A stretch of 50,282 nt of DNA from a virus (taxonomy: Duplodnaviria > Caudoviricetes). The notes under the pieces are model-generated. The model saw only the letters and a program-made list of their open reading frames with translations. It did no database searches and was not told the DNA's origin. Of the stretch, positions 8,326 to 35,336 are shown piece by piece (the first letter of the stretch is position 1; every line of letters begins with the position of its first letter). The stretch is from positions 1 through 50,282 of IMG/VR virus record IMGVR_UViG_3300033485_000020, one strand, 5' to 3'. The position numbers were made by a program, and so were the translations under genes.

Positions 8326-8549
8326 CAGTTGCTGAGTCAATTATAGGAGGAATAGCTTTGGCTATTTTTACTGGAATATTAGGACTCTTACTTGGAGGTA
8401 AGAAGAAAGTAACTGAGGATAGATTTCTAGATCATGTTAACTCCTCTTTTCCTCATATGGCTTGTCCAATACATGAGACTCAGTTAAAGGCAATAGAAAA
8501 GAAGTTGGATAGGATAGATACTAAAATAGATAATCTTCTTGAGAGGTAA
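8322..8549 (+). CDS. Small membrane protein (TM plus coiled coil)
   Basis: N-terminal hydrophobic helix and C-terminal heptads (IEKKLDRIDTKIDNLL). Confidence 0.6.
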   Translation: MTVAESIIGGIALAIFTGILGLLLGGKKKVTEDRFLDHVNSSFPHMACPIHETQLKAIEKKLDRIDTKIDNLLER

Positions 8550-8551
8550 TT

Positions 8552-8917
8552 ATGGCACAGTCTAGTGCATATAAGCGTAAACTATCTGGCTCAACAGATG
8601 GCAAGGCAATAAAGATTACTCAAACAGCTACTGCTGGCGACACTATTCATACAGCAATAGCTGGAACTACAGCAGGCACATATGATGAGATTTGGCTATG
8701 GGCATACAACGGACATACAGCTGATGTAGTTCTCACCATCGAGTTTGGTGGAGCAACTGTCCCTGATCAGAATATAGTTGTAACAATTCCATTTAAGTCT
8801 GGACTTATTCCGGTTGTTCCAGGACTACTTCTTCAGAATGGAATGGTGGTAAAAGCATTTGCTTCTGTAGCAAATGTTATTACTCTAATTGGCTTTGTCA
8901 ACGCAATCACGGATTAG
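8552..8917 (+). CDS. Putative virion structural protein
   Basis: Beta-rich 121 aa with GAGG RBS, located between terL and portal. Confidence 0.55.
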   Translation: MAQSSAYKRKLSGSTDGKAIKITQTATAGDTIHTAIAGTTAGTYDEIWLWAYNGHTADVVLTIEFGGATVPDQNIVVTIPFKSGLIPVVPGLLLQNGMVVKAFASVANVITLIGFVNAITD

Positions 8918-9501: not shown

Positions 9502-10020
9502 ATGTCAGTAATCTTTGATGATATTCCAGATCTAATAATCCTAGATTATGATACTGATATCTGGGAGCCTTCTGAAATATCTACTACTATAGCTCCTACA
9601 ACCCTAGCTCCTACGACTATAGTCTCAACAACTCCTATTCCTACAACTCTTCCTCCGACTACTTTAGCCCCTACCACAGTAGTTTCCACTACTCCTATCC
9701 CAACCACAGTTGCTCCAACTACTTTAATACCTTCTACTACTCCAAGTCCAACTACTCTAGCGCCTACGACTATAATTTCAACCACTGCTCCTCCAACAAC
9801 TTTATTCCCTACTACGATAGTAACTACCTTAGCTCCAACAACACTAGTAACAACCTTTGCACCTACTACTAGTGTCCCAGTCCCTGTCTTTATATGCACT
9901 AAAAAATTAACCTCTTCTATCGAACACGAAATACTAGCTATCTCTCATATTATGACTGATATGCCTCTTCCATCACCGATTATAAAGGAGCTTGAAATAG
10001 ATGGAGACCTATGTTGGTGA
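9502..10020 (+). CDS. Mucin-like Thr/Pro-repeat protein
   Basis: About 20 tandem TTxxP/TTxxS pentapeptides (TTLAP, TTPIP, TTVAP and variants). Confidence 0.85.
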   Translation: MSVIFDDIPDLIILDYDTDIWEPSEISTTIAPTTLAPTTIVSTTPIPTTLPPTTLAPTTVVSTTPIPTTVAPTTLIPSTTPSPTTLAPTTIISTTAPPTTLFPTTIVTTLAPTTLVTTFAPTTSVPVPVFICTKKLTSSIEHEILAISHIMTDMPLPSPIIKELEIDGDLCW

Positions 10021-10330
10021 TACTGTAAATTTAGATGTAGATACAGCTATAGACCTAACTGGTTACACAGGTCTATACATTAAATTCAGGCGTCCTAATG
10101 GCTCGGTAGGGTTTTGGACTGCGGCGATAGATCCACTTGACTCAACTCATATGATCTATCAAACTGACCTAGATGACCTTAACATGGCTGGAGCCTGGAC
10201 AATTCAAGCTCATGCCGAGGCCCTTGGAGTACATCTTCATGGTAAGTGGTATACTTTTACTGTTCTTACTCCGTTGGCTGAGACGTCTACTCCTCCAACG
10301 ACGGCAGCTCCTACAACGCCTACTCCATGA
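10001..10330 (+). CDS. Ig/BppU-N-like structural protein with Thr/Pro tail
   Basis: YVGD...KFRRPNG...DLNMAGAWTIQA pattern; C-terminus TSTPPTTAAPTTPTP. Confidence 0.6.
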   Translation: METYVGDTVNLDVDTAIDLTGYTGLYIKFRRPNGSVGFWTAAIDPLDSTHMIYQTDLDDLNMAGAWTIQAHAEALGVHLHGKWYTFTVLTPLAETSTPPTTAAPTTPTP

Positions 10331-10363: not shown

Positions 10364-12319
10364 ATGCCATACATAGTGAAGGGAAATCCTGATTCATGGT
10401 CGAGAGTAAACTACAAGGATATGAATTTCGACTACAAATATCCTTATGGTTTAGATCTCAAACCAGACTCTGATTTTCATACTAAACTTCGTAGCAAGAT
10501 TTGGCAGCGTGCGCAAGAATCTCGGAATGAAATCTGCAAGAGGTTTAGTTCCTGGAGGGAAATAGATAGATCCTTAACAGTCTATATTGAGCCCACAGAC
10601 GAAGAAGAAACTGTCAAAGAGAAAGATCCCTCAAAGCCTATCTCTATAATCTTCCCTTATTCTTACTCAATGTTGGAAGCCCTTCTAACGTATCTCCAGA
10701 TGGCTTTCATTCAAGATCCTATCTTCCAATATGAAGGAGTAGAGGACGATGACACTGTTGGAGCAGCCCTTCTTGAACTCTGTATAAGGCTACATTGCAA
10801 TAAGAATAAGGTCCCTCTAAACCTTCATACTATGTTTCGTGACTCCTTAGCCTACGGAGTAGGAATAACCATTCCTGAATGGACTAGACGTTATGGAAAG
10901 AAGCCAGTAGTCCACCAATCAGTCACCGAGTCAGTCTTTGGAGCATCTTCTGCAAAGTATGTAACTATGGAAGATGCTATGTTGTTTGAAGGGAATAAGC
11001 TGAGCAACATAGATCCTTATATGTGGCTGCCAGACCCATCTGTAGCCAGCTCAGATATTCAAAGTGGAGAGTTCGTAGGCTGGGTGGATCGCACTAATTA
11101 CATGAAACTACTCAGTCTCGAAACTGAACCAGATTCTGGCTACTTCAACGTAAAGTATTTAAAAGAAAAGAAAGACCGTCGCTCAATCCTCGCTCTCGAT
11201 CAAAGTGATCGACAAACAAAGCATGGTGGGTCTACTGAACTAAACCGTTCAATGACTGAGACTGTGAACCCAGTTGATTCCATAAAGATGTATATCACAC
11301 TTATTCCAAAAGACTGGGAGCTCACCAACTCAGAAGTTCCCGAAAAGTGGTTCTTTGAGCTCGGCTCAGATGACGTAATCATTAGGTGTGAAAAAGCTGA
11401 CCACAACCACGGAATGTATCCTATATCAGTCGCTTCTCCCGAATACGATGGCTATTCAATAACTCCTATCGGTCGAATGGAGGTGCTCTATGGCTTGCAG
11501 CATACTCTTGATTTCCTGTTCAATTCGCACATCAGTAATGTACGCAAAGCGATTAACGACATGCTTGTTGTTGACCCTTATCTTGTCAACATTGAAGACC
11601 TTAAGGATCCTAAGCCTGGAAAACTCATACGTCTTCGCAGACCGGCGTGGGGTAGGGGTGTTGAGAAGGTTGTACAGCAGCTCGTTGTTCAAGACATTAC
11701 ACGTCTCAACATTAGCGATTCTTCATACATCACACAGTGGATGAATCAAATCGCAGGCGCTGATCAGGCAATGGCTGGAGTACTTCGTACTGGTGGACCT
11801 GAGCGTCTGACAAGTGCTGAATTCCAAGGTACTCGAGGATCTGCAATTAGTCGCCTCCAACGCATTGCTCAGATAATTAGTATGCAAGCAATGCATGATA
11901 TAGGAATGATGTTCGCTGTCCACACTCAGCAATATATGCAGCAGGAAACTTATGTAAAAATAGTTGGTCGTCATGCTGATGCACTCAAATCTATCTTCGG
12001 GCCTAAGCGACAAAATGCCCCTGTAAGCCCTTACGATTTAGCAATAAACTATGATCTAATGATACGAGATGGCTCAATTCCTGGAGGTAACTTCTCTGAC
12101 ACCTGGATAGAGCTATTCAAGACCATAGGTACAACCCCTGAATTAGCTATGCAGTTTGATGTTTCTCGAATCTTCATGTACATAGCTCATCAACTAGGTG
12201 CAAAGAATGTAGAGGACTTCAGACGTGTAACTAATCAGATCCAGCCTCAAGTTATGCCTGATGAGACGGTAGCTCGTCAGGTACAAGCCGGCAACTTGAT
12301 TCCAGCAGGAGTACAATAA
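10364..12319 (+). CDS. Portal protein
   Basis: 651 aa between terL and scaffold/capsid. Podovirus-portal-like features (DSLAYGVG, IDPY, LQHTLDFLFN, TSAEF). Confidence 0.85.
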   Translation: MPYIVKGNPDSWSRVNYKDMNFDYKYPYGLDLKPDSDFHTKLRSKIWQRAQESRNEICKRFSSWREIDRSLTVYIEPTDEEETVKEKDPSKPISIIFPYSYSMLEALLTYLQMAFIQDPIFQYEGVEDDDTVGAALLELCIRLHCNKNKVPLNLHTMFRDSLAYGVGITIPEWTRRYGKKPVVHQSVTESVFGASSAKYVTMEDAMLFEGNKLSNIDPYMWLPDPSVASSDIQSGEFVGWVDRTNYMKLLSLETEPDSGYFNVKYLKEKKDRRSILALDQSDRQTKHGGSTELNRSMTETVNPVDSIKMYITLIPKDWELTNSEVPEKWFFELGSDDVIIRCEKADHNHGMYPISVASPEYDGYSITPIGRMEVLYGLQHTLDFLFNSHISNVRKAINDMLVVDPYLVNIEDLKDPKPGKLIRLRRPAWGRGVEKVVQQLVVQDITRLNISDSSYITQWMNQIAGADQAMAGVLRTGGPERLTSAEFQGTRGSAISRLQRIAQIISMQAMHDIGMMFAVHTQQYMQQETYVKIVGRHADALKSIFGPKRQNAPVSPYDLAINYDLMIRDGSIPGGNFSDTWIELFKTIGTTPELAMQFDVSRIFMYIAHQLGAKNVEDFRRVTNQIQPQVMPDETVARQVQAGNLIPAGVQ

Positions 12320-13440: not shown

Positions 13441-13866
13441 ATGGGTCTTGAACAGAATGAAGCTCAGCAGTACAGAGAGATCCCTGATAAGTACGTTGAG
13501 CCGAATGCAAACTATCAGATGAGAACGTGGGACTATGTTCTTCGTCCTTCATCTCAAGGTGCAGGCGGCCCGATAATTATCACGCTTCCTCCTGTCTCTG
13601 AGGCAAAGGGTCGATTCTATTCGATCATCTGTCGCGCTGCAAGCGCTGTCAACACAATAACTATCACTGACAAGAATGACTCTGAGTGCTGGACTGCTGA
13701 CATAGTCCTGGACGGCAAGTGTGACAGAGTTCTACTCTACAGCGATGGTCTGGCATGGATGGCATTGGGTCTTAATCCTGGAGATTGGCCAGGTGCTTCA
13801 ACGACTGGCGCTCCTGGAACGGCAACAGCAACAACCCTTGCTCCGACTACATCGGTTCAGATATAA
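13441..13866 (+). CDS. Putative capsid decoration/minor head protein with TTLAPTT tail
   Basis: Between scaffold and MCP. ITLPP and LLYSDG..W beta motifs; C-terminus TATATTLAPTTSVQI. Confidence 0.6.
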   Translation: MGLEQNEAQQYREIPDKYVEPNANYQMRTWDYVLRPSSQGAGGPIIITLPPVSEAKGRFYSIICRAASAVNTITITDKNDSECWTADIVLDGKCDRVLLYSDGLAWMALGLNPGDWPGASTTGAPGTATATTLAPTTSVQI

Positions 13867-13896: not shown

Positions 13897-13913
13897 TAAC
13901 ACATGAGGTGAAT

Positions 13914-15215
13914 ATGTTTCTTGGAATGAGAGGTAACGATGACTGGGTTGCCGACCAGAGGCCAATGAATTGGAGACAACAGATACTCTATTTGTATCCT
14001 AATGGCTCCGCGCCCTTAACGGCTATCCTTTCTATGATGGGAAGTCAATCAGTGGATGATCCACAGTTCCATTGGTGGACTCAGTCTCAAAGTGCAGTAT
14101 CAGGAGCAGTAGCTGGTGTATTTACTCTCCCTGATCTCTCTGTGGCCTACGCTGCAGGTGGTGTGGCTGGAGATATCGTCTATGTCCAGATCACAACTGT
14201 GCTTGGTAACAGAATTCGCGAAGGTCATCAGATTCTCCTCCGCGATGCTTCTGACTTCACAGTCGATGTAGTTGGCAAAGTCACTGGAGTAACCAGAGGC
14301 GCTGTCAACACTGTGTTGGCTGTGAAACTCTTGGAAGCTGACGATAACTCAACAACTCACGATCTCAGCGATTGCGATAACTTCAAAATTATCGGCAACA
14401 TCAATCCTGAGGGTGGTGAGATGCCTGATGCTATCGCACTCAACCCTGTCAAGGTGTATAACTACACCCAGATTTTCCGTACTCCTCTTTCATTAACTCG
14501 AACTGCAAAAAAGACCAAGCTTCGTACTCCTGACCAGTACCAGAAGGCGAAGTCTGAAGCTCTTGAAATGCACTCGTGGGAAATGGAACTGGCATTTCTG
14601 TGGGGAATACGTACTGAGAACACTGGAGACAACGGGAAGCCTGAGCGCACCACTATGGGTGTGATCAACTTCATTCGACAGTTTGCCCCCCTAAACTGCG
14701 ATGACTTCTCTACTAATGCTACTTATGCTGGTCTAGCATGGGCAGCTGCAGCGGGTGGATTGCTCTGGTTTGACAACATGCTGGAGCAAATCTTTAGGTT
14801 TGGAGCGACTGAGAAGCTTGCTCTGTGCGGATCGGGTGCTATACTTGGACTCCAACGTCTAGCACTTGTCCACGGACAGATTCAGCTTCAGAACGTTCCC
14901 AAAGCCTATGGTATGGAGATTTTGAGGTGGGTAACTCCGTTTGGTTCTATCTATCTCAAAACTCATCCACTCTTCAGCCATGATGCTACAACTCGTAACA
15001 TGATGGTCTTGCTTGAACCGAAGGAACTCACCTATCGTTACATTGACGATACTCAGTTCTACAACGAGGCTAATGCCAAGTCGCATCCTGAGGGATACGG
15101 CGGGAAACGTCTTGATGGCACGAACGAGGAGTTCCTCACTGAATGTGGCCTTGAATTTGGCCTCTCCGAGAAGTGTGCTGTACTCAACGGCGTCGGACTT
15201 GATAGTGTCGTTTAA
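13914..15215 (+). CDS. Major capsid protein (SU10/DUF5309-like)
   Basis: NYTQIFRTP, E...E.AFLWG, RTTMG and TPFG motifs; follows the scaffold. Confidence 0.85.
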   Translation: MFLGMRGNDDWVADQRPMNWRQQILYLYPNGSAPLTAILSMMGSQSVDDPQFHWWTQSQSAVSGAVAGVFTLPDLSVAYAAGGVAGDIVYVQITTVLGNRIREGHQILLRDASDFTVDVVGKVTGVTRGAVNTVLAVKLLEADDNSTTHDLSDCDNFKIIGNINPEGGEMPDAIALNPVKVYNYTQIFRTPLSLTRTAKKTKLRTPDQYQKAKSEALEMHSWEMELAFLWGIRTENTGDNGKPERTTMGVINFIRQFAPLNCDDFSTNATYAGLAWAAAAGGLLWFDNMLEQIFRFGATEKLALCGSGAILGLQRLALVHGQIQLQNVPKAYGMEILRWVTPFGSIYLKTHPLFSHDATTRNMMVLLEPKELTYRYIDDTQFYNEANAKSHPEGYGGKRLDGTNEEFLTECGLEFGLSEKCAVLNGVGLDSVV

Positions 15216-22033: not shown

Positions 22034-23380
22034 ATGGTTAACGGAGTCTTTGGATTAGGATCTGACTTTATTGCTAAGTTAGGTCAAGGAATGGCTGGGC
22101 AAGGAATGGCAGCACAGCCTGGATTTCTACAAAACTTATTTTCCAATAGATTATTCCTCCAGATGCTTGGCGCAGCTGGAGCTGATCTCTCACAGGGCAC
22201 AGGAGGAAAGCATACTCTTGAAGCTCTCACTAAGAACTTAGCTGGAGGTAGTTTTAAGGAGCTAATGGGAGCGTTGATGAAAGGAGGAGCTGATGCAAAG
22301 ATGACCATTGGAGGAGATGGAAGTGTGTCGTTGAAGACTGCCCCTGGTACAACGCAAGGTACTCAACCTCAAGTCCCATCAGTAACTCCTAACGTATTCA
22401 ATCCTCAGATACCTACTACACCAGCAGGCTCTCAGCCTATTGGATCGTCTGGGACTCAGCCTAATAACTTCTCTGACATAATAGGTCAGATGATGCTTGG
22501 TAAAAGTTTTTTCGCGCCTAGTCTGTCAGGATTGTCAGCGTCTGACTTGGCAGGCTTAGGCCCTGAAGAAATTGCGCAGGCGCTGACCTTGAAAGGGAAC
22601 TTTGATGAGTTAGGTATGCAACGGCTTAGGGATATCTCTGATGCAATGTTCAGAGGATCACAAGTTAGTGATTGGGCAGAGCAGAGGAGATTGGCTGCTA
22701 GTGGACAGGATGTTGATAGAACACAAGCAGAGACTGCTCGACTAAATGCTATCAGAGCACTTGCTGATGAGATGAGAGAATCTCCTATAGAGATTCCAGG
22801 TATTGGAAAAGTCGATCTTAAGTCCTTTAACGCTTTGCCAGAGAAAGCTAAGGCATATGCTTTCTATGTATTTGATCAGAAGAAGAATAGTAGAGCCCCA
22901 CTGGTATATGAAGCGTGGGAAGCTCAGATTGATGCTCCTACTTTGAAAAAGTACTACGATCTTTCTAAAACAGATTCTGGGTTTAAAGAGTTTCTTATGG
23001 AGTATCAAGAGCGTGGATCTACTAAAGTAAGTAACTATATGACTCCTGAAGCGACTGCCTTATCTAGAGGTAAAGCTGAGCCTTGGGTTCAGTTGCAAGA
23101 TCCTAAGCTGATAAATGCTGAAGTATTTAGTCATCCTGAGTATGAGGCAGCTAAGGATAGTTATGATCTTGCCATGCTATCAGATAACAAGGATAAAAGA
23201 GATGAGGCTAGGACGGAGTTTGCTCTTGAGACCGCTAAGATTAGAAAGAAGGTAGTCCTTGGCATGATAGCTGCTGGAAAAGGTACTATTAAAAATATGT
23301 ATCTTAAAAATGGAAAGATGGTAATTGAAGTAATTAAAGAGAATGGTGAGCCTACGGTGGTGTCTTATGCCCTTGACTGA
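22034..23380 (+). CDS. Internal virion/DNA ejection protein
   Basis: Gly/Ala/Gln-rich N-terminus; precedes the giant protein. Confidence 0.55.
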   Translation: MVNGVFGLGSDFIAKLGQGMAGQGMAAQPGFLQNLFSNRLFLQMLGAAGADLSQGTGGKHTLEALTKNLAGGSFKELMGALMKGGADAKMTIGGDGSVSLKTAPGTTQGTQPQVPSVTPNVFNPQIPTTPAGSQPIGSSGTQPNNFSDIIGQMMLGKSFFAPSLSGLSASDLAGLGPEEIAQALTLKGNFDELGMQRLRDISDAMFRGSQVSDWAEQRRLAASGQDVDRTQAETARLNAIRALADEMRESPIEIPGIGKVDLKSFNALPEKAKAYAFYVFDQKKNSRAPLVYEAWEAQIDAPTLKKYYDLSKTDSGFKEFLMEYQERGSTKVSNYMTPEATALSRGKAEPWVQLQDPKLINAEVFSHPEYEAAKDSYDLAMLSDNKDKRDEARTEFALETAKIRKKVVLGMIAAGKGTIKNMYLKNGKMVIEVIKENGEPTVVSYALD

Positions 23381-26300
23381 TCAGATGGATCTTGAGCTGG
23401 AGAAGTATTATAGAAATAAGTCTATAAAAACTAGTGAGCCTGTGCAAGCCTCTACTGATGATATTGATACTCAGCTAGAAGCTTATTATAGGAAGAAGAA
23501 AGTCTCTTCAGCTCCTCCACCAAAACCTAAGGAAGAGCCTAAGCCTATGACTCTTCCTCCAGAGAGAAGATCTGTAGGAATTCTTCCAGTTCCAATGGAG
23601 ATGGGAAGAGAGGGTGGAGGAGAATGGGGAGGAGGACGTTTAGCTAAGCCTTTAGAAGGTCCTGCTAAGTCAGTAGAAAGTTTTATTGAAGGTGTTGGAG
23701 AGGCTCTTGATCCTAGACCAATAATTACTGAAACTTATAAGCGTTGGAAAGAAGGGGACCTTCCTGGAATGGCCGAGATAATTTCGGGAGGGTTTGTTAG
23801 TAAGGATTTGCTTGAAGGAAAGACTACTGGAATATCTGGGATAGAAAAACTTAATGTCGGGGCCAAGGCATTGCTAAAAGGCAATCCAGTTGAGGCCGCT
23901 AACGAAGCAGCTAAGGCTATTCCTTTCTTCGGACCTATGCTTGAAGCAGTTCAGTATTATTTAGATCAGGGAGAGTATGCTAAGGCTGCTGGGCTAACTA
24001 CTGGAATACTAATTCCTTTTAAGGCTGGACAAATACTTCATAATATAAGGATGGCAGAAGCATCAGCTAAGGCTGCTAAAAGGTATGAGAGAGTAGCGGT
24101 TGATACGTCTAGACAAGAAGCAGCTATTTCTCAAATGCCTGAAGGTTCTCAGAAAGAAACAGCTACTGCTCAAGTTGAGAAGGTCAAGAAATCTAACAAA
24201 GCTAAGGCTGAGAAAATAGTTCAAGAGGAAGCTCAGAAGGCAGTCGTCAAAGCTGATGTAGCTGCGAAGGCTAGACAAGTCAAAGAACGAAAAAAGATGA
24301 GAGCTGTTCCTGAGATTGCGAAGGAGACTAAGGCTGAGGTTCCTACAGTTCCAGAGAAATCCATAGAAGACATTATGGCTCCGGTGAAGGAGCTTGAAGC
24401 GCAGCAGAAGGCTAAAGGTGAGCCTATTAGGGTTAAAGTTCCTTCTGTGATGAGAGTGTCAGAAGTCCCATCCAAAATAAATGAGACTCAGTGGGTTAAG
24501 GAGAATGCTCCTGATATTTATAGAGAAGCGGAGCGTCGTACTAGGGAGCGTACATCAGAGATATGGGATGAAGCGAGGAGACAAACTGAGAGGGCTAAGA
24601 TAGCTCAGGAGAAAGAGTTCATTATTCAGCCTGATGAATATGCAGCGCTGGACGCTCACTTCGATGATTGGACTGAAGTGCCTACGAGTGAGTTGGTAGA
24701 GTTCTTACAGAATAGAAGGAGAGGGAAAGTTGAGCCGTCTAAGAGGACGCCTGAAGTGTTTGAGGATGAAGCTACGTTGGAAAGGGAACTAGCGGAGATA
24801 GAAGCAGAGTTCACACCTGACAAGATGGAGATTAAGAAGGGAGTCCCCGCTGCTACACCTTCTTTGTCTAAGGTCGAAGCACTTAATGCAGTCAGAGAAA
24901 AGTTAGATACTCTACGTAAGCAGCAAGAAGCAGAAGTAGATGCATTCTTAGACGATATTGACTTGGGATTAGGAGTAGAGGAATCACCTGGATTGGTTGG
25001 CGAGGTTAGTCCATTTAGAACTGATCCGAGCGCTACTAAGGCACAGTCAATAGCTTATGGAAAGAATCCTTTGGTTGCAGCTAGTATGGAAGAGCTGACC
25101 AATCCATCTGCGCCAAAAGATCCTATGATAACAAGTCATAAGTTAATGAATGACTTTAACAGATGGCTTGATGGCGAGGAGGTTAGTGTAGAGCAGACGA
25201 GGAATTTTCTAAGTGACTTAGCATCAAAGACAGATGACTTCAAATGGACTTTCATGGATGAGTTAGGGAACTTGGATGTTGAGGCGTTTAGTGAGTGGAA
25301 GGATTTTATTAGCGAAGGAGCGAAGTGGGCTAGGAAGACAGAGAGAGGAGGAGTGAGGAGTACACTGACTAGTTTGTATATGGGCTTGCCGATAGATGAA
25401 GCTTGGAATCAGATGAAAGTTTGGTACTCGGCATTGAGGAAGGCAGCTGAAGTGAAGTTACCTAATAAAGTTACTGGAGCACAGCTAAAGAATACTTTTG
25501 TAAGTAAGAATAGTAAAGGAGAAGACGTATTTAATAAAGGAGTTACCGAAGCTGAATGGAGGGCTATAGGTCTAGAAGATATCTATAGACCTGAGGCCTT
25601 GATAGAAAAAAGTGAGATATTAAAGAGGATAGATGAGAGTACTGTAGAGTTTAAAGATGTTATATTAGAAGATAAGCCTCATAAGAATTTCGTAGAGTGG
25701 GCTAGAGAAAGAGGATTAGATACTAGAGAAAGAGAGGCTTATGAAATATATGAAGATGAGTATGGAGTAAAAGCAGAAAGGACTAAATTCTCCTCCTATC
25801 AAGAACCTGGAGGGAGTAATTATAAAGAGTTGTTTGTGACGGCTCCTGCTACTAAAACATCTGACTGGAATAAGGCTTTTAGAGTAGTAGAGCAAGATGG
25901 TAAGTTTAACATAATGTCTCCAGACGGAGAGTTATTTATTCCTAGAGATAGATTATATAATACTAGAGAAGAGGCCTTAGCGAGGATAGCTAGAGAAAAA
26001 GACGTATCAGTAGAAGAAGGTATGAATAAAGTTAGTACTCCTAAATGGCAAGACGGCCACTCCGACTACTCAGACATAGAAAATCCTATTGTTAGATTGA
26101 GGATGAATGATAGAGTAGATGCACAAGGTAATAAAGTTCTCTTCCTCGAAGAACTTCAACCTCCTGTCCCTGACCAGCAAGCTAAGATGCCTCCTGCTTT
26201 ACAAAAAAGATGGCGTGAAATAGGAATGAAGAGGGCTATTAAGTATGCACTAGATAATGGATATGATAAGGTAGCGTGGACAACTGGGGAGATGCAGGCT

Positions 26301-29300
26301 AATAGGTATTCACTTGATAAACAAATTAGTAGTATTGATTACTGGAAAAATTCAGATGGAACATATCAACTATGGCCTAACGGAGTACAGCAAGCTGACT
26401 TTAGCCATATTCCAGCTGAAAGACTTCCTGAGTATGTAGGTGCTGAAGTAGCTCAGAGGATTATAGGTAATGAAGGTGAGTATGCACGAGGTGATGTAGA
26501 GTATGCAGCTATGTTATATCAGCGTAGAATAGGTAGAGATCATCTTCTTACTGAAGAGGCTCATCCTGATGGTGGCTATATCTCTAGATATTCTGAAGAG
26601 TTTAAGAGTTCTCCAGAATGGAAATCTTATGTAGATGGAAAGACTCTACAAGGACTTGACCTTAAGAATGAAGAGAAAGGTCTCCGCAAACTCTACGACC
26701 AAGGCCTTCCTAATGTAGCAAAGAAGTTAGGAGGAAGAGTTGAGAGTGTTGAGTTACCTAGTGGTCGTAGTGCAGAAACATTTGAAGAGTTTCAATCTCG
26801 TATGGTTCCAGAAGATAGAAATGCTCCATTAGAAGTTCAAAGAAGATGGTATGACGAGATAATTCCTGACAATAGAAATAGATTTATAACAGTCTCCTCC
26901 ATCTCTCTCGAACCTTTCAAATCTAAAATAGGAGAAGGATTTTCACTTTATAGTGGGATACCTATTGATGAGATAGTCAAAAGACTAGGCAAAATTCATC
27001 CTGCTACGTATCCAAAGACTATTCAAAAGACTATGGCTGCTATAGCCTATGAGCTAAAGGTTACTGATATATTAGACATATTTGCTGGAATAGGAAATAT
27101 AGGAAAGCTGAAAGAATATGGATACACTGGAAATATTAGAGCTAGCGAAATAGAACCTAAATGGGGAGGGGAGTCTACTAAATCACTTCATAAGGCTAGA
27201 GGAGTTGATGAATCTTATATAGGAGATTCTAGAAAACTTCCTATTGCAGATGAATCTGTACAAGCTATTTTTACTTCTCCTACTTATGGAAATATGATGG
27301 CTGCGAGGTCTCCAAGTAGAATAGATACTTATCAGGCATTAGCAGGAGGTAAACTAAAGAAAGGTAATACTGGAGGAGAAGTATGGGGACCTGAATATGA
27401 GAAGCTACATAGAGAAGCGTATGATGAAGCTTATAGGATAGTTAAGCCTGGAGGCTTCTTTGTTCTTAATATGAAAGATAAGCCAGTTTCTGCAGTAGAT
27501 GCAAAAAATAACTGGATTCCAAAGAGAGGATCTACAGTAGAAGTTAGAGATAATGTGATGAAAGCTACTGACTGGCATATAAGAGCTTTGGAAGATGCGG
27601 GATTTGAGTATATAGAAACTATAACTGTTGAGGAGGCTAAAGCTGGATCTGCTACTCAGCTATATCTTAGACGCTATACTACTGGGACTGAAAATATAGT
27701 TGTTATGGGTAAGCCTGATCAGGCTGGAAAAGTAAGAAGTTTAAAAGCTAATAGAATAAGGAGTATGTTGGATATAGAAAAATCATGGAGTGGTAAAGGC
27801 CAGATGTTATACTCAGGCATACCTCTTAATAAACTCCTAGAAGTTGGAAAGCTCTGGAAGAAGTATAGTGATGATTATGAATTAGCAAAACACATTCCTT
27901 TTAAAGTCCAACTTCAAACATTCAGAGAAAACTTTAACAAACACTGGCTATCTCAATCTGGAAACATTCGTAGAGCACTTGAGCAATATGGAGATAGAGG
28001 ACATGAGATCCTCCAAGCGCAGCTAACGACCAAGAATGGGCATCCAAGAGCTGTGAATAAACATAGACAGTTGATCAAAGAGTACGATCATGGACTAAGT
28101 AAAGAGCTCCGTGATATTAGGGATCAACTAATCCTCGCCGAACGTATGCTTTCGATTTCAAAGACTGAGTCTGGAAAGAAGATGAAGTATCCAGAGGCAT
28201 TTACTCCAGAGAGGTCTAAGATAATTAGTGAGGCGATAGGATCAAAGACTATAAATGGGATTAGAGACCTTACACCAGAAGAAGTTGCTAAGATCAGAAA
28301 GTCTACTGAGGCATACTTTGAACATCATAAGATGTTGATTGAAGATAGGTACAAAGCTGGACTAATTGGTAAGGAGGAAAGGGATAACTTAATTGCGAAT
28401 AACTTTGAGAAGTTCAGAAATGTAAAGGATATTACACCAGCTAATACGTTTGATAGAAAGAGAGAGGTGAATGTAGGAGGGAAGAAAATTCAAGTATATG
28501 ACTCAGGTATTGATACACTAGCAAAGGGAAGGACTACTGATATACTTGAAAAGAACTCAGCGCTATTAGCGTTGGAGGAGATGCATAGGACGTATGCAGG
28601 ACTAGCTAACAATGAAGCTATGACCTTAATTCTCGACACAGCACGTAGAGATCCTAACAATCCTTTTGCAAGAGTCAGCGAACCACAAGTTATTGAATTA
28701 GCTGAACAGCCTAAGAAGAGGACTGAGCTGGTTAGATCTATCCATATTAAGAAGAATGAACTAGCAATGTCTGACTATGAATATAAGGCTAGGCTTAAGA
28801 AAGAGACAGGACATACTAGTACGAAACAGTTGACTGATAAACAACTGGCAGCCTTTGATACTTCACTAGGAGGCCCTTCCAAGGGATATGCTAAGGGATC
28901 AGGACAGAAGATTCCTAAGGGTTGGAAGAGGCACTTTGTATATGAGAATGGGGCGAGGAAGATTGTATGGCTAGAGCCGAAGTTCTCTGGAGAGTTTATA
29001 ACTAGTGGTAATGATGTGTCAGGGGCATTAGCTAAGACATTAAAGTGGCTGACGCTCACACCAGTGGTGAGGACATTTGCTACTACTATTGAGCCTGTAT
29101 TTGCATTAGCTAACTTCCCTCGTGATATAACTCATGCACTGTTCGCTGCGAGAACATTTGAGAATGGGAAGTATAAGAGCTTGTATCAAGTTACTCATCC
29201 AACATCTATTCTTAAGATGCCAGCTGACTTTAAAGCAGTATTCAAAGATGCATTTAAACGTACTGGAAGATATAATGACTACATAGATGATGGCGCTGGA

Positions 29301-30842
29301 ATGGACTTCTTGGTTGTCCAAGGAAGGCCATGGAAGAGAGGACTGAGACTAGAGAATGTCTTTGATAAGGCACTAGATTTCTTTGGTTATCTTAATGAAA
29401 CATCTGAGATACTAACTAGACTCGCTGTGAGAGAAAGAGTAATCAAGAATGAAGCTGCTAAGGCAGGAATCACAGTTGAGCAAGCACTTAAGGATACAAA
29501 GATTAGAAAGAAAGCTTCATTCGCTGCACTGGATATGATGAACTTTGGAGACACAGGAGGATTCTCCAGGGCTATTAACAACGTGAGTCCGTACTTCAGT
29601 GCAAGGCTTACTGCTACTAGATCATTGTTTAGGACTTTCAAGCCAGGCAGTGGGACAGCAGCTGAGAACTGGTTGAAGATAGCTACGTTTGGTAGCTTGA
29701 TTACTGCTCTGTATATAGGAAACCACAAGAAGAATCCCAAGACTATGGAGCAACTAAGAGGTGATGGAAGGAACTTAAATTATTTAATTATACCTCTTGG
29801 TGACCAGTTTGGCTATCCAGATCCTGAGACTAAGCAGATGAGATATCCTTATATAAAGATTCCTATTGATAGCTCTCAGGTATTCTTTAAGACTTTGTTT
29901 GAGGCGCTTACGGATAAGTGGTTAGGGAAAGAAGTAGATGCGAATAGAGTTATTCAAGCCCTTAAGAATTCCAGTCCTGTGGATGTGACGGCTTATCCGC
30001 CACTTGCTAGTGCACTAACTGGCTATTGGCTGAATAAGGATTTCTGGAACGCTCAGGATATATGGAAGCAGACTGATAAGCCACTACCGTTAGCACAACC
30101 GAAGTGGATAAGCGGGGAGAAAGTTGGGAGGTCTGAAGAGGAATACCTTCCAGGGAAAACTCCTCAGTTCTTTGTTGACTTAGGGAAGGTAACTGGGCTG
30201 AGTCCAGAGCGTGCTAAGTATATGGCGGAGGAACTTTATACAAGTGATAGTACGTATGCTAAGTTGTTACTCTATGGATATGAAGAGGTGCTTAGTCAAC
30301 TCCCAGAGGACTACAGACAACAAGTGTTAGCTGATGCACTGTCAAAGGTTCCAGGGATTAAGAGGTTCTATGGAGTAACTAATCCTCAAGCCAAGGGAAT
30401 GGTTGAGTATAGGAAGTTAGCTGAGAAGGAAGATGCTGTGCTGTGGACACAGAATAGAGGATTAGATGAGAGGATGAATAGGTACTTTAATGCCACGCAA
30501 GCAAATCCAAAACAGAAGTCAGATCTTAATCAGGAAGTGATTGACTATATTTCTGGCTTCAAGGATAAAGAAATTAGGAAGAGAATGATAGATGATTATA
30601 AATTTACTAGATCCATTAGACAACTTCCTAATAGACAATTCTGGCTGAATATGAAGAGGCTTGGGATTGAGCAGAGGGCTGAGTACTATTTGTGGAAGAT
30701 GAGAAATTCACCTCAGGATGAGATAGATCAGATCAATAAAGAGTCTGCAGTTATAATGAGAATAGGTGGGATTATTACTAAGGAATTTAGACATAAGGTT
30801 CAGCTGCAGCAAGCAAGAGAACGTGAGTCCAATTTAAAATAA
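23367..30842 (+). CDS. Giant polyvalent internal virion protein with embedded DNA methyltransferase domain
   Basis: About 2,490 aa at the end of the virion arm. MTase motifs DIFAGIG and IFTSPTY, a GemA-like insert, and a helical LPD38-like C-terminal region. Confidence 0.75.
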   Translation: MPLTDQMDLELEKYYRNKSIKTSEPVQASTDDIDTQLEAYYRKKKVSSAPPPKPKEEPKPMTLPPERRSVGILPVPMEMGREGGGEWGGGRLAKPLEGPAKSVESFIEGVGEALDPRPIITETYKRWKEGDLPGMAEIISGGFVSKDLLEGKTTGISGIEKLNVGAKALLKGNPVEAANEAAKAIPFFGPMLEAVQYYLDQGEYAKAAGLTTGILIPFKAGQILHNIRMAEASAKAAKRYERVAVDTSRQEAAISQMPEGSQKETATAQVEKVKKSNKAKAEKIVQEEAQKAVVKADVAAKARQVKERKKMRAVPEIAKETKAEVPTVPEKSIEDIMAPVKELEAQQKAKGEPIRVKVPSVMRVSEVPSKINETQWVKENAPDIYREAERRTRERTSEIWDEARRQTERAKIAQEKEFIIQPDEYAALDAHFDDWTEVPTSELVEFLQNRRRGKVEPSKRTPEVFEDEATLERELAEIEAEFTPDKMEIKKGVPAATPSLSKVEALNAVREKLDTLRKQQEAEVDAFLDDIDLGLGVEESPGLVGEVSPFRTDPSATKAQSIAYGKNPLVAASMEELTNPSAPKDPMITSHKLMNDFNRWLDGEEVSVEQTRNFLSDLASKTDDFKWTFMDELGNLDVEAFSEWKDFISEGAKWARKTERGGVRSTLTSLYMGLPIDEAWNQMKVWYSALRKAAEVKLPNKVTGAQLKNTFVSKNSKGEDVFNKGVTEAEWRAIGLEDIYRPEALIEKSEILKRIDESTVEFKDVILEDKPHKNFVEWARERGLDTREREAYEIYEDEYGVKAERTKFSSYQEPGGSNYKELFVTAPATKTSDWNKAFRVVEQDGKFNIMSPDGELFIPRDRLYNTREEALARIAREKDVSVEEGMNKVSTPKWQDGHSDYSDIENPIVRLRMNDRVDAQGNKVLFLEELQPPVPDQQAKMPPALQKRWREIGMKRAIKYALDNGYDKVAWTTGEMQANRYSLDKQISSIDYWKNSDGTYQLWPNGVQQADFSHIPAERLPEYVGAEVAQRIIGNEGEYARGDVEYAAMLYQRRIGRDHLLTEEAHPDGGYISRYSEEFKSSPEWKSYVDGKTLQGLDLKNEEKGLRKLYDQGLPNVAKKLGGRVESVELPSGRSAETFEEFQSRMVPEDRNAPLEVQRRWYDEIIPDNRNRFITVSSISLEPFKSKIGEGFSLYSGIPIDEIVKRLGKIHPATYPKTIQKTMAAIAYELKVTDILDIFAGIGNIGKLKEYGYTGNIRASEIEPKWGGESTKSLHKARGVDESYIGDSRKLPIADESVQAIFTSPTYGNMMAARSPSRIDTYQALAGGKLKKGNTGGEVWGPEYEKLHREAYDEAYRIVKPGGFFVLNMKDKPVSAVDAKNNWIPKRGSTVEVRDNVMKATDWHIRALEDAGFEYIETITVEEAKAGSATQLYLRRYTTGTENIVVMGKPDQAGKVRSLKANRIRSMLDIEKSWSGKGQMLYSGIPLNKLLEVGKLWKKYSDDYELAKHIPFKVQLQTFRENFNKHWLSQSGNIRRALEQYGDRGHEILQAQLTTKNGHPRAVNKHRQLIKEYDHGLSKELRDIRDQLILAERMLSISKTESGKKMKYPEAFTPERSKIISEAIGSKTINGIRDLTPEEVAKIRKSTEAYFEHHKMLIEDRYKAGLIGKEERDNLIANNFEKFRNVKDITPANTFDRKREVNVGGKKIQVYDSGIDTLAKGRTTDILEKNSALLALEEMHRTYAGLANNEAMTLILDTARRDPNNPFARVSEPQVIELAEQPKKRTELVRSIHIKKNELAMSDYEYKARLKKETGHTSTKQLTDKQLAAFDTSLGGPSKGYAKGSGQKIPKGWKRHFVYENGARKIVWLEPKFSGEFITSGNDVSGALAKTLKWLTLTPVVRTFATTIEPVFALANFPRDITHALFAARTFENGKYKSLYQVTHPTSILKMPADFKAVFKDAFKRTGRYNDYIDDGAGMDFLVVQGRPWKRGLRLENVFDKALDFFGYLNETSEILTRLAVRERVIKNEAAKAGITVEQALKDTKIRKKASFAALDMMNFGDTGGFSRAINNVSPYFSARLTATRSLFRTFKPGSGTAAENWLKIATFGSLITALYIGNHKKNPKTMEQLRGDGRNLNYLIIPLGDQFGYPDPETKQMRYPYIKIPIDSSQVFFKTLFEALTDKWLGKEVDANRVIQALKNSSPVDVTAYPPLASALTGYWLNKDFWNAQDIWKQTDKPLPLAQPKWISGEKVGRSEEEYLPGKTPQFFVDLGKVTGLSPERAKYMAEELYTSDSTYAKLLLYGYEEVLSQLPEDYRQQVLADALSKVPGIKRFYGVTNPQAKGMVEYRKLAEKEDAVLWTQNRGLDERMNRYFNATQANPKQKSDLNQEVIDYISGFKDKEIRKRMIDDYKFTRSIRQLPNRQFWLNMKRLGIEQRAEYYLWKMRNSPQDEIDQINKESAVIMRIGGIITKEFRHKVQLQQARERESNLK

Positions 30843-32376: not shown

Positions 32377-34861
32377 CGTAAGTCTCCTGAAGTTTAATTG
32401 CTAAGTTGTCAATGTTAGACGGGAATGACTTGCTTTTGAGTTCTATCATGGACTCTTTACACATATTAAAGCCGATAGCTAAGTCAACAGGTGTGGCAAA
32501 CTCAGTATCATGCCAAGTGAGAGGGGTTTCCAATGACTGCTTAATCATTGAGAGCATCCTAGCGTGCTCGAGCCAAGGGAGAGATAGTGGGATTTGGAAT
32601 ACTATTGAGTCATGAATCTGAGCGAGGAGTTCTATAGGGCTAAAGAGATCTTGGTTGTAATAGATAAATTCTACTCCTTGTTCATTTATCTTATCAGCGC
32701 AAGTACTCTGTGCCATTTGAGCATAGGCTTCTCTATATGTATCTTGGCAGGCACTAAGTGATGTGTTGCGATCTGGATGGACGGGGCCTAGGAACATCCT
32801 TGAGCGGCCAAACAAGTTAATAACAACCCTTGATTTCTTCAACATCTCTTGGATGATTAGTTGATAACCACCTCTTATTTGTGGATAGCCTTTGTGAATC
32901 TTCTCGAGCATGTACTTAGCTTCAGCTTCAGGTATCTCATTTACCAGAGCGAAGGTCTTATATCCAACATCGTAGTTGATAGCATGATTACCTTTCTTTC
33001 CCCAGTATCGCTCACTCTGACGACCATCACCTAGGTCTGAAGATCCATCTTCGTTGGAGATTTGATCATAGGGTTTGTTGAAGATAACAGAGGCTGTCAG
33101 CTTGTGTAGATCGATCCCTGATTCGAAAGCTTCAATCTGCGGAATAACTCCTCCAACATAAGCCACGATTCTGTTTTCGATCTGAGAGAGGTCAAAGCTG
33201 TATCCGATATAACCGTCATCGAATAGGAAGAATCGTAAAAGGTCATGCGGCCAGTTTTGTTGGTTACCTCCAGTTCCAAAGATAGTTTCACCCGAACTAA
33301 GTCTACCTGTTTCCGCACCAACTGGTTTGTAAGACGATCTATAGCGTCCATCCCTGTCAACCTTTCCTATGTTTAAATAAGTTGAAATACGCTTCGTCAA
33401 GCTGCGAATGTCAAGCATTATGCGAGCAGCTTCGGAACCCTTTACTCCGAGCCGAAAGATGCGCTTGAGTGCGTCTACATCAGTAGAGTCCTGGTGAGTG
33501 TTGCGGTTTTTGTAGGGCCTGATTCCACAGTCTTTGTAAAAGTACTGCATCAACTGATCTGGTGAATTATAGTTTATATCACGTCCTACTTCGCTTCTTA
33601 ATTTTTCCGCAAGATTATCTAATGTACATTGTTGTGTGTTTCTATACTCTATCATTCCCTGCACATCAACTCGAATTCCACGCTCTCCCATGTAAAGGAG
33701 AGGTTCAATGAGTTTACGTTGGCGCTGATAAGTTTCAATATTCCCTTGTTTAGAAAGAACTTGAAATTGCTTAGGGAATGCTTCGAGTGGGACTATAGAG
33801 TCCATGCCATTATAGTTCCACCATTCTTCCCAAGTTCCTGCACCGAGTTTCATCCACTGCTTACCATCAGCCTTGTAATAAGGAATATCAGTATACATGC
33901 TAGTGACAAAGTCAAGACCAGCAGGGAAGTCAGGATAGGATATTTTCTGTGCAATTTGAGTACAATGAAGAACGCCACGAGGTCTAATGCCATACTTACG
34001 AAACAAAAACTGAGTATCAAATATAAAGTTAGCACCGACTTTAGCTATCCTTTCTTCTTGTAAGATTTTGGCGACGAGGAGCATAATCCCAAGCTCATCG
34101 TCTGGGTTAAAATAATCACCTTGCGAGGATCTAAAAGGGATACAAGCGGCGTGAGTACTATCCCATCCGACGGAGAGACAATCGACCTCACCATTGATGA
34201 CTTCAATATCGAGACTAAGTACTTGGCCTCTGAGCCCGACCTCATAACAATAGTTGAGAAGTCTAACACTCTCGTCATAAGAAGGTTTAGTATAGATTGT
34301 GCGACCGATTCGACGAATACCTTTGAATTCTGATTCAGCTTTGGCACGGAGTAAGTCCTCGCAAATTAAGGGTTTATTGAGAAAGTTGAATTTGGGTGGA
34401 ATGAAAGTTGCTGGATGATAAGTAGGGAGAACTTTCAATCCAGGAACAAGAGTTGAGTCTAGTACAGAGCTACGCCATCTACCTATGCCCATTCGATTAG
34501 TGAGTGCTATGAGGGCTACGTTGCCGAGAGCTACGATACAATTAAGGGTACGATTTCTAAGTTCATTTCCTAACTCCTGAATATACTGATAACCTTCAGG
34601 ATGGATAGTGAACTTACCTTTCTTAAAATCAAGGTCTATGTAGTGAGCTAGTGGCATATCGAGGTCTTTGATTACATTGGTGAGGTAGAGATCCCTACGC
34701 AGAATTTTAGTCATCATCAAGCAATCATCAAGACCTTGACCTGCAGGACCTATGAAACCACGAGGAGGATTGGCTCTGATTTCTTGAACTCCAGGCTGCT
34801 CACCACAAATGCCGAGTTTGGCATCTGGAGGACCGTTAGGCGGAACGAAGGTTCGCTTCAT
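32342..34861 (-). CDS. polA: Family A DNA polymerase with N-terminal uracil-DNA-glycosylase-like domain
   Basis: UDG4-like GEQPG, FIGPAG, TNV and YHP. Exonuclease LDIE, N..FD, YNGMD. Pol motifs ETGRLSS, DLSQIE, KKGNHAINY, QIHDS. Confidence 0.93.
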   Translation of the reverse strand: MKRTFVPPNGPPDAKLGICGEQPGVQEIRANPPRGFIGPAGQGLDDCLMMTKILRRDLYLTNVIKDLDMPLAHYIDLDFKKGKFTIHPEGYQYIQELGNELRNRTLNCIVALGNVALIALTNRMGIGRWRSSVLDSTLVPGLKVLPTYHPATFIPPKFNFLNKPLICEDLLRAKAESEFKGIRRIGRTIYTKPSYDESVRLLNYCYEVGLRGQVLSLDIEVINGEVDCLSVGWDSTHAACIPFRSSQGDYFNPDDELGIMLLVAKILQEERIAKVGANFIFDTQFLFRKYGIRPRGVLHCTQIAQKISYPDFPAGLDFVTSMYTDIPYYKADGKQWMKLGAGTWEEWWNYNGMDSIVPLEAFPKQFQVLSKQGNIETYQRQRKLIEPLLYMGERGIRVDVQGMIEYRNTQQCTLDNLAEKLRSEVGRDINYNSPDQLMQYFYKDCGIRPYKNRNTHQDSTDVDALKRIFRLGVKGSEAARIMLDIRSLTKRISTYLNIGKVDRDGRYRSSYKPVGAETGRLSSGETIFGTGGNQQNWPHDLLRFFLFDDGYIGYSFDLSQIENRIVAYVGGVIPQIEAFESGIDLHKLTASVIFNKPYDQISNEDGSSDLGDGRQSERYWGKKGNHAINYDVGYKTFALVNEIPEAEAKYMLEKIHKGYPQIRGGYQLIIQEMLKKSRVVINLFGRSRMFLGPVHPDRNTSLSACQDTYREAYAQMAQSTCADKINEQGVEFIYYNQDLFSPIELLAQIHDSIVFQIPLSLPWLEHARMLSMIKQSLETPLTWHDTEFATPVDLAIGFNMCKESMIELKSKSFPSNIDNLAIKLQETYDELCRRRADGN

Positions 34862-35043
34862 ATAACACCAGCCAATGCAAATGCTGCCCAGAAAATAACT
34901 AAGATATTTTCAAATAGTTTAAAGCAATCTTCTTTCCTGCTCCACTTTACTACTCTAGGATATTCTTTTACTGCTAGAGTTAGGAGTAAGGATATGAAGT
35001 GGATTATTTGAAAGGCTAGAACAAATATTACTAGAACTTTCAT
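34858..35043 (-). CDS. Small two-TM membrane protein
   Basis: Two hydrophobic segments, GGAGG RBS, overlaps the pol start (ATGA). Confidence 0.6.
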   Translation of the reverse strand: MKVLVIFVLAFQIIHFISLLLTLAVKEYPRVVKWSRKEDCFKLFENILVIFWAAFALAGVI

Positions 35044-35056
35044 CAGCTAACCTCCG

Positions 35057-35081
35057 AGTCATATTTATTTTAAATTTAACT
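35057..35081. promoter_or_regulatory. 25-bp quasi-palindromic site, copy 8
   Basis: agtcatATTTATTTTAAATttaact. Confidence 0.85.
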
Positions 35082-35085
35082 TCCG

Positions 35086-35322
35086 TTAAAAGATCTTTAC
35101 TATAGGATCGCCCATTCCCCACTTAGGCCTTCTTAGTCTGATAATCTTAATTGTTGAAGGAAGGCCGGAGTGTATGAGATCTTCCATATTTATCTGATAT
35201 GGATCAACTATCAATGCTTTAGGTATCCCATCTTTGTTTTCTGGTCCTATAGCACTAACACAACTAACTACTGGTATGGCTGGTAGAGCAAGCGCATACT
35301 TGAAAAAATTTCTTCTGTCCAT
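35086..35322 (-). CDS. Small protein with Tat-like N-terminus and portal-like C-terminal segment
   Basis: MDRRNFFK plus hydrophobic stretch; LIVDPY..N.EDL...IRLRRP.WG.G matches this phage's portal; AAGGAG RBS. Confidence 0.7.
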   Translation of the reverse strand: MDRRNFFKYALALPAIPVVSCVSAIGPENKDGIPKALIVDPYQINMEDLIHSGLPSTIKIIRLRRPKWGMGDPIVKIF

Positions 35323-35336
35323 AATATCTCCTTTGT

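Follow-up and report, generated by a model that had tools for sequence, protein, structure and literature searches.

A rare early podophage gene encodes a stand-alone relative of a portal segment and may mimic the portal clip

The portion of the portal ring known as the clip protrudes from the capsid. Among portals, the closest described relatives of the small phage protein reported here are those of the SU10/VP1 type (PF23899; PDB 8zkk, 7z44), proteins of about 650 aa with wing, stem, crown, and barrel. In the canonical order of portal domains the clip lies between two stem helices and consists of three strands and one helix, it is flexible in isolated portal rings, and it forms the docking station for the terminase and the tail machinery (PMC12847820). 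In SU10, a loop of the adaptor wedges between neighbouring clips (PMC9509320), and the domain limits of a portal of similar size have been described (PMC13730344). The portal ranks with the most highly conserved proteins of phages, and this is why several bacterial immune sensors take it as their trigger. The clip of the SPbeta portal is the docking site of the TIR sensor SpbK, which can be escaped through a mutation in the clip (PMC12847820, PMC11984713). For Avs4 the sensed form is the portal monomer, and Avs11 likewise recognises the portal (10.1101/2025.11.14.688446, 10.64898/2026.01.04.697583). Phages of the SPbeta group counter SpbK with Nip, which is expressed early, before the late portal (PMC11984713). 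An action of the portal on RelA/SpoT was also considered as a lead and was set aside, since the clip is not needed there (PMC13483052).

The window analysed here is the whole of IMG/VR virus record IMGVR_UViG_3300033485_000020 (Duplodnaviria; Caudoviricetes), which at 50,282 bp is a complete phage genome bounded by direct terminal repeats. Its plus-strand arm carries the structural and packaging genes, and its minus-strand arm is devoted to replication, encoding a primase, MazG, a UDG-exonuclease-PolA fusion, a ParB-methylase fusion, a dCMP deaminase, a Sak4-like protein, an exonuclease, and a ligase. The gene of interest, hereafter ORF78, lies in the minus-strand replication arm, flanked by the ParB-methylase and DNA polymerase genes. 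The features referred to below are as follows.

6790-8325, plus strand: large terminase, in the structural and packaging arm
10364-12319, plus strand: portal gene, 651 aa, SU10/VP1-type, in the same arm
11543-11692, plus strand: portal segment, residues 394-443, homologous to the small protein and the likely start of the clip domain
13908-15215, plus strand: major head protein, in the same arm
34858-35043, minus strand: ORF of 61 aa that contains two hydrophobic stretches and comes second, after ORF78, in the variable insert
34862-35336, minus strand: variable insert from the methylase stop to the polymerase start, an accessory-gene hot spot of lower G+C
35086-35322 (stop codon included), minus strand: ORF78, 78 aa, a group A member of the portal-clip-like family
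35089-35235, minus strand: portal-clip-like core (residues 30-78) with the conserved positions V-D-P-Y, D, R, and W-G
35245-35322, minus strand: N-terminal leader, residues 1-26, with the twin-arginine motif DRRNFFK followed by 19 uncharged residues
35323-35336, minus strand: spacer of 14 nt between the methylase stop codon and the ORF78 ATG, holding AAGGAG

As read from the sequence, ORF78 has a strong ribosome-binding site (AAGGAG, 5 nt before the ATG), and scanning for promoters and terminators gave no candidate site above chance near the gene. The ORF78 sequence recurred with zero differences in contigs of two other sequencing runs. The downstream 61-aa ORF is preceded by GGAGG, 7 nt ahead of its ATG, and overlaps the start of the polymerase gene in the sequence ATGA; it had no match in Pfam, PHROG, or PADLOC. 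A look-alike 61-aa ORF occupies the same junction in L024 (4776-4961), and different membrane ORFs of 55-57 aa lie at the methylase-polymerase junction of L015, L029, and L042.

The initial annotation of this DNA had noticed that the C-terminal half of ORF78 resembles a segment of the phage's portal, and the resemblance proved to be robust. Residues 30-71 of ORF78 aligned with portal residues 394-432 (nt 11543-11659) at a BLASTP E value of 8e-11, with 21 of 42 identities and a single 3-residue gap. The portal coordinates first proposed for the match (11564-11659) were correct, both proteins contain VDPY, N.EDL, and IRLRRP.WG.G as described, and the location of ORF78 in the replication arm, on the strand opposite to the portal, was confirmed by the ORF list and the Pfam annotation of the neighbours. 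The Smith-Waterman score of the pair was 98, which none of 5000 shuffles reached (30.2 ± 4.4, maximum 63), and the next best score among the 131 other open frames of at least 60 aa, taken from all six frames, was 42. A six-frame search of the whole phage returned only ORF78 itself and the portal segment, the latter at E 2.8e-8. When the small-protein family described below was compared as a whole with the portal family, hhalign gave a probability of 98.7% and an E value of 4.3e-16 over 49 columns, aligning residues 31-78 of the small proteins with residues 395-443 of the portal. No portal match for ORF78 (78 aa, compared with 651 aa) was found in Pfam or PHROGs. Based on these alignments, we concluded that the core of ORF78 is homologous to a defined part of the SU10_portal (PF23899) portal.

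The portal of this phage matched PF23899 at E 4.3e-15 and PDB 8zkk_A at E 1.7e-104, and the top Foldseek matches of its model were the VP1, N4, and Pa223 portals. In the AF2 model of the portal monomer, a helix at residues 371-393 was followed by an irregular stretch to residue 452, helices at 453-463 and 470-473, and a long helix at 484-524, with pLDDT below 50 over residues 377-494, the range that holds the segment. Since this order is the canonical one of stem helix, clip, stem helix, and long wing helix, we accepted as likely the earlier suggestion that the segment belongs to the clip: it comes immediately after the predicted stem helix, in a part of the model where pLDDT is below 50. The model of ORF78, itself of low confidence (pLDDT 66), showed three strands (19-22, 36-39, and 59-62) and one short helix (46-50) besides an N-terminal helix (3-12), and a Foldseek search of PDB with this low-confidence model gave no match at E<=0.001. 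The "KRRR" wing motif of P22 was considered as an equivalent of the RLRRP strand and rejected, being located in the wing, before the stem; its authors show that it is not a scaffold-binding site (PMC13386823).

Early searches had suggested that ORF78 was an orphan. A word-indexed protein search with ORF78 alone retrieved only itself, tblastn against 50,697 phage records gave no match, and neither did an IMG/VR scan with the single ORF78 protein. This picture was overturned by an exhaustive HMMER search of 1.84 billion representatives, which returned 10 matches, 7 of them small homologs: four proteins of 75-82 aa that matched over their full length at 46-51% identity, and three of 81-83 aa that matched in the core only. 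The other matches, P0126, P0127, and P0129, were long repeat proteins with many short matching stretches and were dropped as spurious. A profile search based on 15 members yielded 40 clusters of proteins 65-130 aa long, and no cluster had a Pfam domain or an informative source name; there was no PHROG match among the 46 family members, and nothing was found when prokaryotic genomes were scanned with the group A alignment. Short-word searches can miss this family entirely, and an exhaustive profile search recovers it. The result is an unannotated protein family, with no Pfam or PHROG match, added to phage genomes.

The family comprises about 40 clusters of full-length homologs, in which length, start, and core are conserved. 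Throughout the alignment of 46 members, D40, P41, and R62 were invariant and N45, D48, R65, P66, W68, and G69 were at least 90% conserved; across eight small proteins, the conserved positions were V39, D40, P41, Y42, D48, R62, W68, and G69. The residues invariant in the portal segment of 32 portals (V403, D404, P405, N409, D412, R423, W429, G430, and G432) mostly align with these conserved positions (V-D-P, D, R, and W-G), and the cores of the small proteins were on average about 46% identical to portal cores. As judged from the profile comparison and these shared residues, the ORF78 family is a stand-alone derivative of the portal family.

A tree of the core could draw on 44 columns only. Group A, to which ORF78 belongs, formed one clade (support 100/95) among other small proteins, and 28 of 29 portal cores formed another (100/92), which also included one long-branch small protein; the divergent portal of L230 paired with the small protein of L227, so that two long-branch rows broke a clean split between small proteins and portals. 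The tree is compatible with one or a few old origins and with group A being derived, which is as much as so few columns show. The L230 portal (6867-8792) is a distant one, 37% identical to that of this phage; its clip segment is nearer to the leaderless small proteins than the segments of other portals are, and its pairing with a leaderless small protein is, given the long branch, of unsure placement.

The initial annotation had described ORF78 as a copy of the phage's own portal segment. This was not borne out. ORF78 is an ancient paralog whose distance to every portal of the group is about the same: its matches to the portals of 80/80 related loci had E values of 1e-8 to 5e-6, making them about as similar as its own portal, and its core identity was 0.50 with its own portal, the mean over all portals being 0.46. 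Codon by codon, ORF78 and the portal segment agreed at 60 of 117 nt, distributed over codon positions 1, 2, and 3 as 23, 29, and 8 of 39. Third positions were at or below random agreement while 21 of 39 residues were identical, and the same codon was used at only 5 of the 21 identical residues. Synonymous sites have thus been randomised while residues persisted, which argues that the ORF78 peptide has been retained by selection. Pairwise dN/dS, computed among eight family members with DNA sequence, was 0.18-0.36 for ORF78 against the members in L139, L235, and L236, and 0.12-0.61 in 9 of the 10 small-gene pairs, those with finite dS; the tenth pair was saturated.

These values bear on the possibility that ORF78 is a non-functional relic, a decaying fragment of a portal gene left by illegitimate recombination and open by chance. 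Such an origin would agree with the short extent of the portal-like stretch and with the placement of the gene in a recombination hot spot of lower G+C, but it is hardly credible in view of the roughly 40 clusters of full-length homologs with conserved length, start, and core, the dN/dS below 1 in all 9 measurable pairs, the strong ribosome-binding site, the occupation of the same site in L139, L235, and L236, and the retention of the peptide at saturated synonymous sites. From the pattern of substitution we concluded that ORF78 is a real gene under selection, and on the same grounds the relic reading appears nearly excluded.

The distribution of the family is sparse. All six members that could be located belong to related podophages; they are encoded on the early/replication strand and occupy four different places. 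The group A members of this phage, L139, L235, and L236 are situated between the methylase and the polymerase, and the other positions are between exonuclease-like and Sak4-like genes (L219, and L220, whose protein is the same as in L221), directly after the polymerase (L222), and immediately before the exonuclease (L227). None of 24 near-complete relatives (polymerase-locus contigs of 41 kb or more) carries the small gene; in these the family profile matched the portal only, whereas both positive controls matched twice. The methylase-polymerase gap was surveyed in the 54 of 56 polymerase loci that have a methylase homolog. It measured about 90 nt or less in 27 of the 54 and 125-817 nt in the other 27, where it contained unrelated small ORFs, some coding for HNH endonucleases or small membrane proteins. 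G+C over the insert of this phage was 0.30-0.41, compared with 0.40-0.50 in most flanking windows, and in a diverged relative's contig from run X3 position 34768 was joined to 35431 without the 662-nt insert (22 differences in 119 aligned letters). HNH-type ORFs resembling homing endonucleases fill the junction in L011 (4522-4965) and L049 (4481-5008); the occurrence of ORFs of this type marks the junction as an insertion hot spot. We concluded that ORF78 is an accessory, rare early gene.

This distribution weighs on a role in packaging or assembly. A free mini-clip could bind the phage's own large terminase (6790-8325) or its adaptor at the portal-docking site, and so postpone or adjust docking until procapsids are available, or interfere with a relative infecting the same cell. 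The terminase and tail machinery do dock on the clip (PMC12847820), the adaptor loop is wedged between clips (PMC9509320), and the small proteins have retained the conserved residues of the portal. A core assembly factor would, however, be expected in most relatives and beside the structural genes, while this gene is absent from 24/24 near-complete relatives and is always found in the replication arm, at varying positions. Moreover, the portal segment is nearly invariant in 80/80 related portal loci, so that a competitor's portal would be indistinguishable from the phage's own. We consider a packaging modulator of this kind unlikely.

The same observations apply to a mini-clip that would pair with the clip of a portal protomer in the manner of a neighbouring subunit, and so cap or poison the ring, either as a chaperone holding portal monomers or as a dominant-negative factor against ring assembly by a superinfecting relative. 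All portal sub-domains, the clip included, have been modelled in inter-subunit contacts (PMC12847820), and the mean identity of about 46% between small and portal cores would be compatible with such pairing. As the segment is the same in all relatives, however, the phage would poison its own portal too, and the gene is rare. In addition, the identity to the own portal relative to the mean over all portals was 0.50/0.46 in this phage, 0.39/0.39 in L227, and 0.50/0.45 in L222; the small proteins are not closer to the portal of their own phage, and there is thus no sign of co-evolution with a cognate portal. We regard ring capping as quite improbable. A complex prediction with two copies of portal residues 365-480 and residues 30-78 of the small protein gave no verdict (score 0.00 in two runs) and speaks neither for nor against binding.

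The N-terminal regions divide the family into two types. Group A (10 of 46 members, ORF78 included) begins with a twin-arginine motif followed by an A-A-P-A-like stretch, while most of the other 36 members have a conserved acidic N-terminal segment without any signal-like feature, and a few have other N-termini. The consensus of twin-arginine (Tat) signal peptides is S/T-R-R-x-F-L-K followed by an h-region, and the TATFIND rule asks for an R-R-x-F-L-K-like motif and about 13 or more uncharged residues. ORF78, with DRRNFFK and 19 uncharged residues, agrees with this rule and is in these respects like the described Tat signal peptides (PF10518, TIGR01409), although its scores fall below the cut-offs. 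The resemblance that the initial annotation had pointed out is real but weak: the Pfam TAT_signal match of ORF78 had an E value of 0.039 and 14.4 bits, below the cut-off of 22.7. Among six group A members, three matched TAT_signal at E<=1 (best 0.002) and one matched TIGR01409 at E 0.004, ORF78 not being matched by the latter, and all Tat HMM scores in group A were below the curated cut-offs of PF10518 and TIGR01409. The motif RR-x-F-[FIL]-K is found in 9 of the 10 group A members, P0125 having L at the F position. The longest uncharged run after RR was 17-19 residues in five of the ten (19 in ORF78) and only 8 in the other five, in which Lys and Asp come after 8 uncharged residues. Look-alikes in the Atlas included Tat-signal clusters at 0.80-0.85; all look-alikes were below 0.9 and serve as leads only, and the pLDDT of the Atlas model of ORF78 was 0.31. 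A lipoprotein signal was considered because of the V-V-S-C box of ORF78 and rejected, as Cys21 is not conserved among group A members, and no conserved cleavage site was seen in the alignment of the group A leaders.

Part of the leader region is set by the alignment opposite a likely strand of the leaderless members, which suggests that the leader may have arisen from the N-terminal part of the domain. The N-termini of 15 members, compared with all proteins of this phage, gave no significant match outside the family, indicating that the leaders were not copied from another phage protein.

Judged by its leader, ORF78 may be exported or tethered to the inner membrane. For group A, this opens the possibility of an envelope function, in which the leader would export the folded mini-clip or anchor it in the inner membrane, where it would prevent related phages from delivering their genomes (superinfection exclusion) or have a target in the envelope. 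The motif in 9 of 10 members, the 19 uncharged residues of ORF78, the TAT_signal matches of three of six members at E<=1 (best 0.002), the Tat-signal look-alikes in the Atlas at 0.80-0.85 (as leads only), and the small two-helix membrane ORF that follows ORF78 are all in keeping with such a role. On the other hand, all HMM scores lie under the curated cut-offs, five of the ten group A members have an uncharged run of only 8 residues, a short one for a signal, there is no conserved cleavage site or lipobox (Cys21 of ORF78 is not shared), and the clip of an incoming virion is covered by the adaptor outside the cell (PMC9509320). Furthermore, with the leader confined to 10 of 46 members and most members lacking any signal, export cannot be the common mode of action of the family, and the two subgroups, 36 members being without a leader, may not act in the same compartment. 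An envelope function of group A therefore seems rather improbable to us.

Any mechanism must cover a small, early, rare, and positionally mobile gene under long-term selection with varying N-termini. Because the small proteins retain most of the residues conserved in the portal, molecular mimicry is the most likely mechanism, and by this reasoning the family probably acts by imitating the portal clip. As to the function of ORF78, our proposal is a tentative one, possible rather than probable: it may imitate the portal clip as a free-standing protein and compete for a partner that binds the clip, with a portal-sensing host protein as the most plausible candidate. In its core of about 45 residues, the family is a stand-alone paralog, diverged long ago, of the stretch that comes after the first stem helix of the portal, the putative clip. 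Made before the portal, the mini-clip would occupy the clip-binding site of a partner, and if that partner is an immune sensor of the portal, as we favour, the mini-clip would be a decoy or competitive inhibitor, binding as a monomer and without supporting the clustering that such sensors need. In group A the N-terminus appears to have become similar to a twin-arginine signal, and with 19 uncharged residues the ORF78 copy may in addition be tethered to the membrane or passed through the inner membrane.

Three arguments lead us to favour a host sensor as the partner. Accessory early genes located at hot spots usually target the host; a ligand present as a monomer would fail to support the clustering by which the sensor is activated; and action ahead of the late portal is the logic described for Nip. 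Against the decoy reading, a mimic of the trigger could activate the sensor instead of blocking it, and a decoy acting in the cytoplasm is not easily reconciled with the twin-arginine leader of group A. A more specific form of the decoy, which we find doubtful, is that the mini-clips blind SpbK-, Avs4-, or Avs11-like sensors and that the group A leader drags the sensor to the Tat machinery, resulting in its sequestration at the membrane or its expulsion from the cytoplasm. None of five proteins (ORF78, its 61-aa neighbour, and three family members) matched the defence or exclusion models of PADLOC-DB at E<=0.01.

In comparison with the SU10/VP1-type portals, the small proteins have the homologous core of about 45 residues with most of its invariant residues kept, but they are without wing, stem, crown, and barrel and have no portal HMM match; ORF78 is moreover located in the early arm, on the other strand, as an accessory and rare gene, and the N-termini of the family are found in no portal. 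The principle proposed for ORF78 is the same as that of Ocr, a DNA-mimic anti-defence phage protein, and of mimics of its type, in that an early protein would imitate the ligand of a host defence protein and occupy its binding site. Unlike those mimics, ORF78 would imitate part of a structural protein of the phage itself, retained as a paralog. Nip is likewise an early accessory gene directed at a system in which the portal clip is sensed by the host, but it is described as a protein of 279 aa with SH3-like and HU-like domains that binds the TIR effector domain and is not a portal look-alike (PMC11984713, PMC12847820). No sequence relation between ORF78 and Nip was seen, nor would one be expected. 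A full-text literature search in a collection with few subscription papers found no free-standing paralog of the portal clip and no counter-defence by portal mimicry. If the decoy function is true, it would represent a new principle of counter-defence, built from the phage's own structural gene. The family may also provide a testable handle on how an indispensable structural protein is shielded from sensing, on the timing of docking, and on the minimal recognisable epitope of the portal.

Several further features were observed in this genome and its relatives. In L222 (8001-8393), directly after the polymerase gene, the family member is a protein of 130 aa with a Cys-rich C-terminal extension ending in C-P-K-C. 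In L220 (4925-6153), a leaderless member overlaps the end of an exonuclease-like gene by 4 nt, which suggests translational coupling of the family member with recombination genes. The DNA polymerase of this phage (32342-34861, minus strand) combines a UDG-superfamily domain, a 3'-5' exonuclease, and PolA in one fusion protein, and its neighbours encode MazG, the dCMP deaminase, the ParB-methylase fusion, and a sugar epimerase; this set of UDG, MazG, deaminase, methylase, and epimerase genes may point to modified DNA. The structural arm ends in a giant ORF of 2499 aa (23343-30842, plus strand). Three ORFs around the portal and head genes contain Thr/Pro-rich repeats of the form T-T-[LI]-A-P-T-T (9502-10330 and 13441-13866, both plus strand), which may be mucin-like or glycosylated decoration segments.
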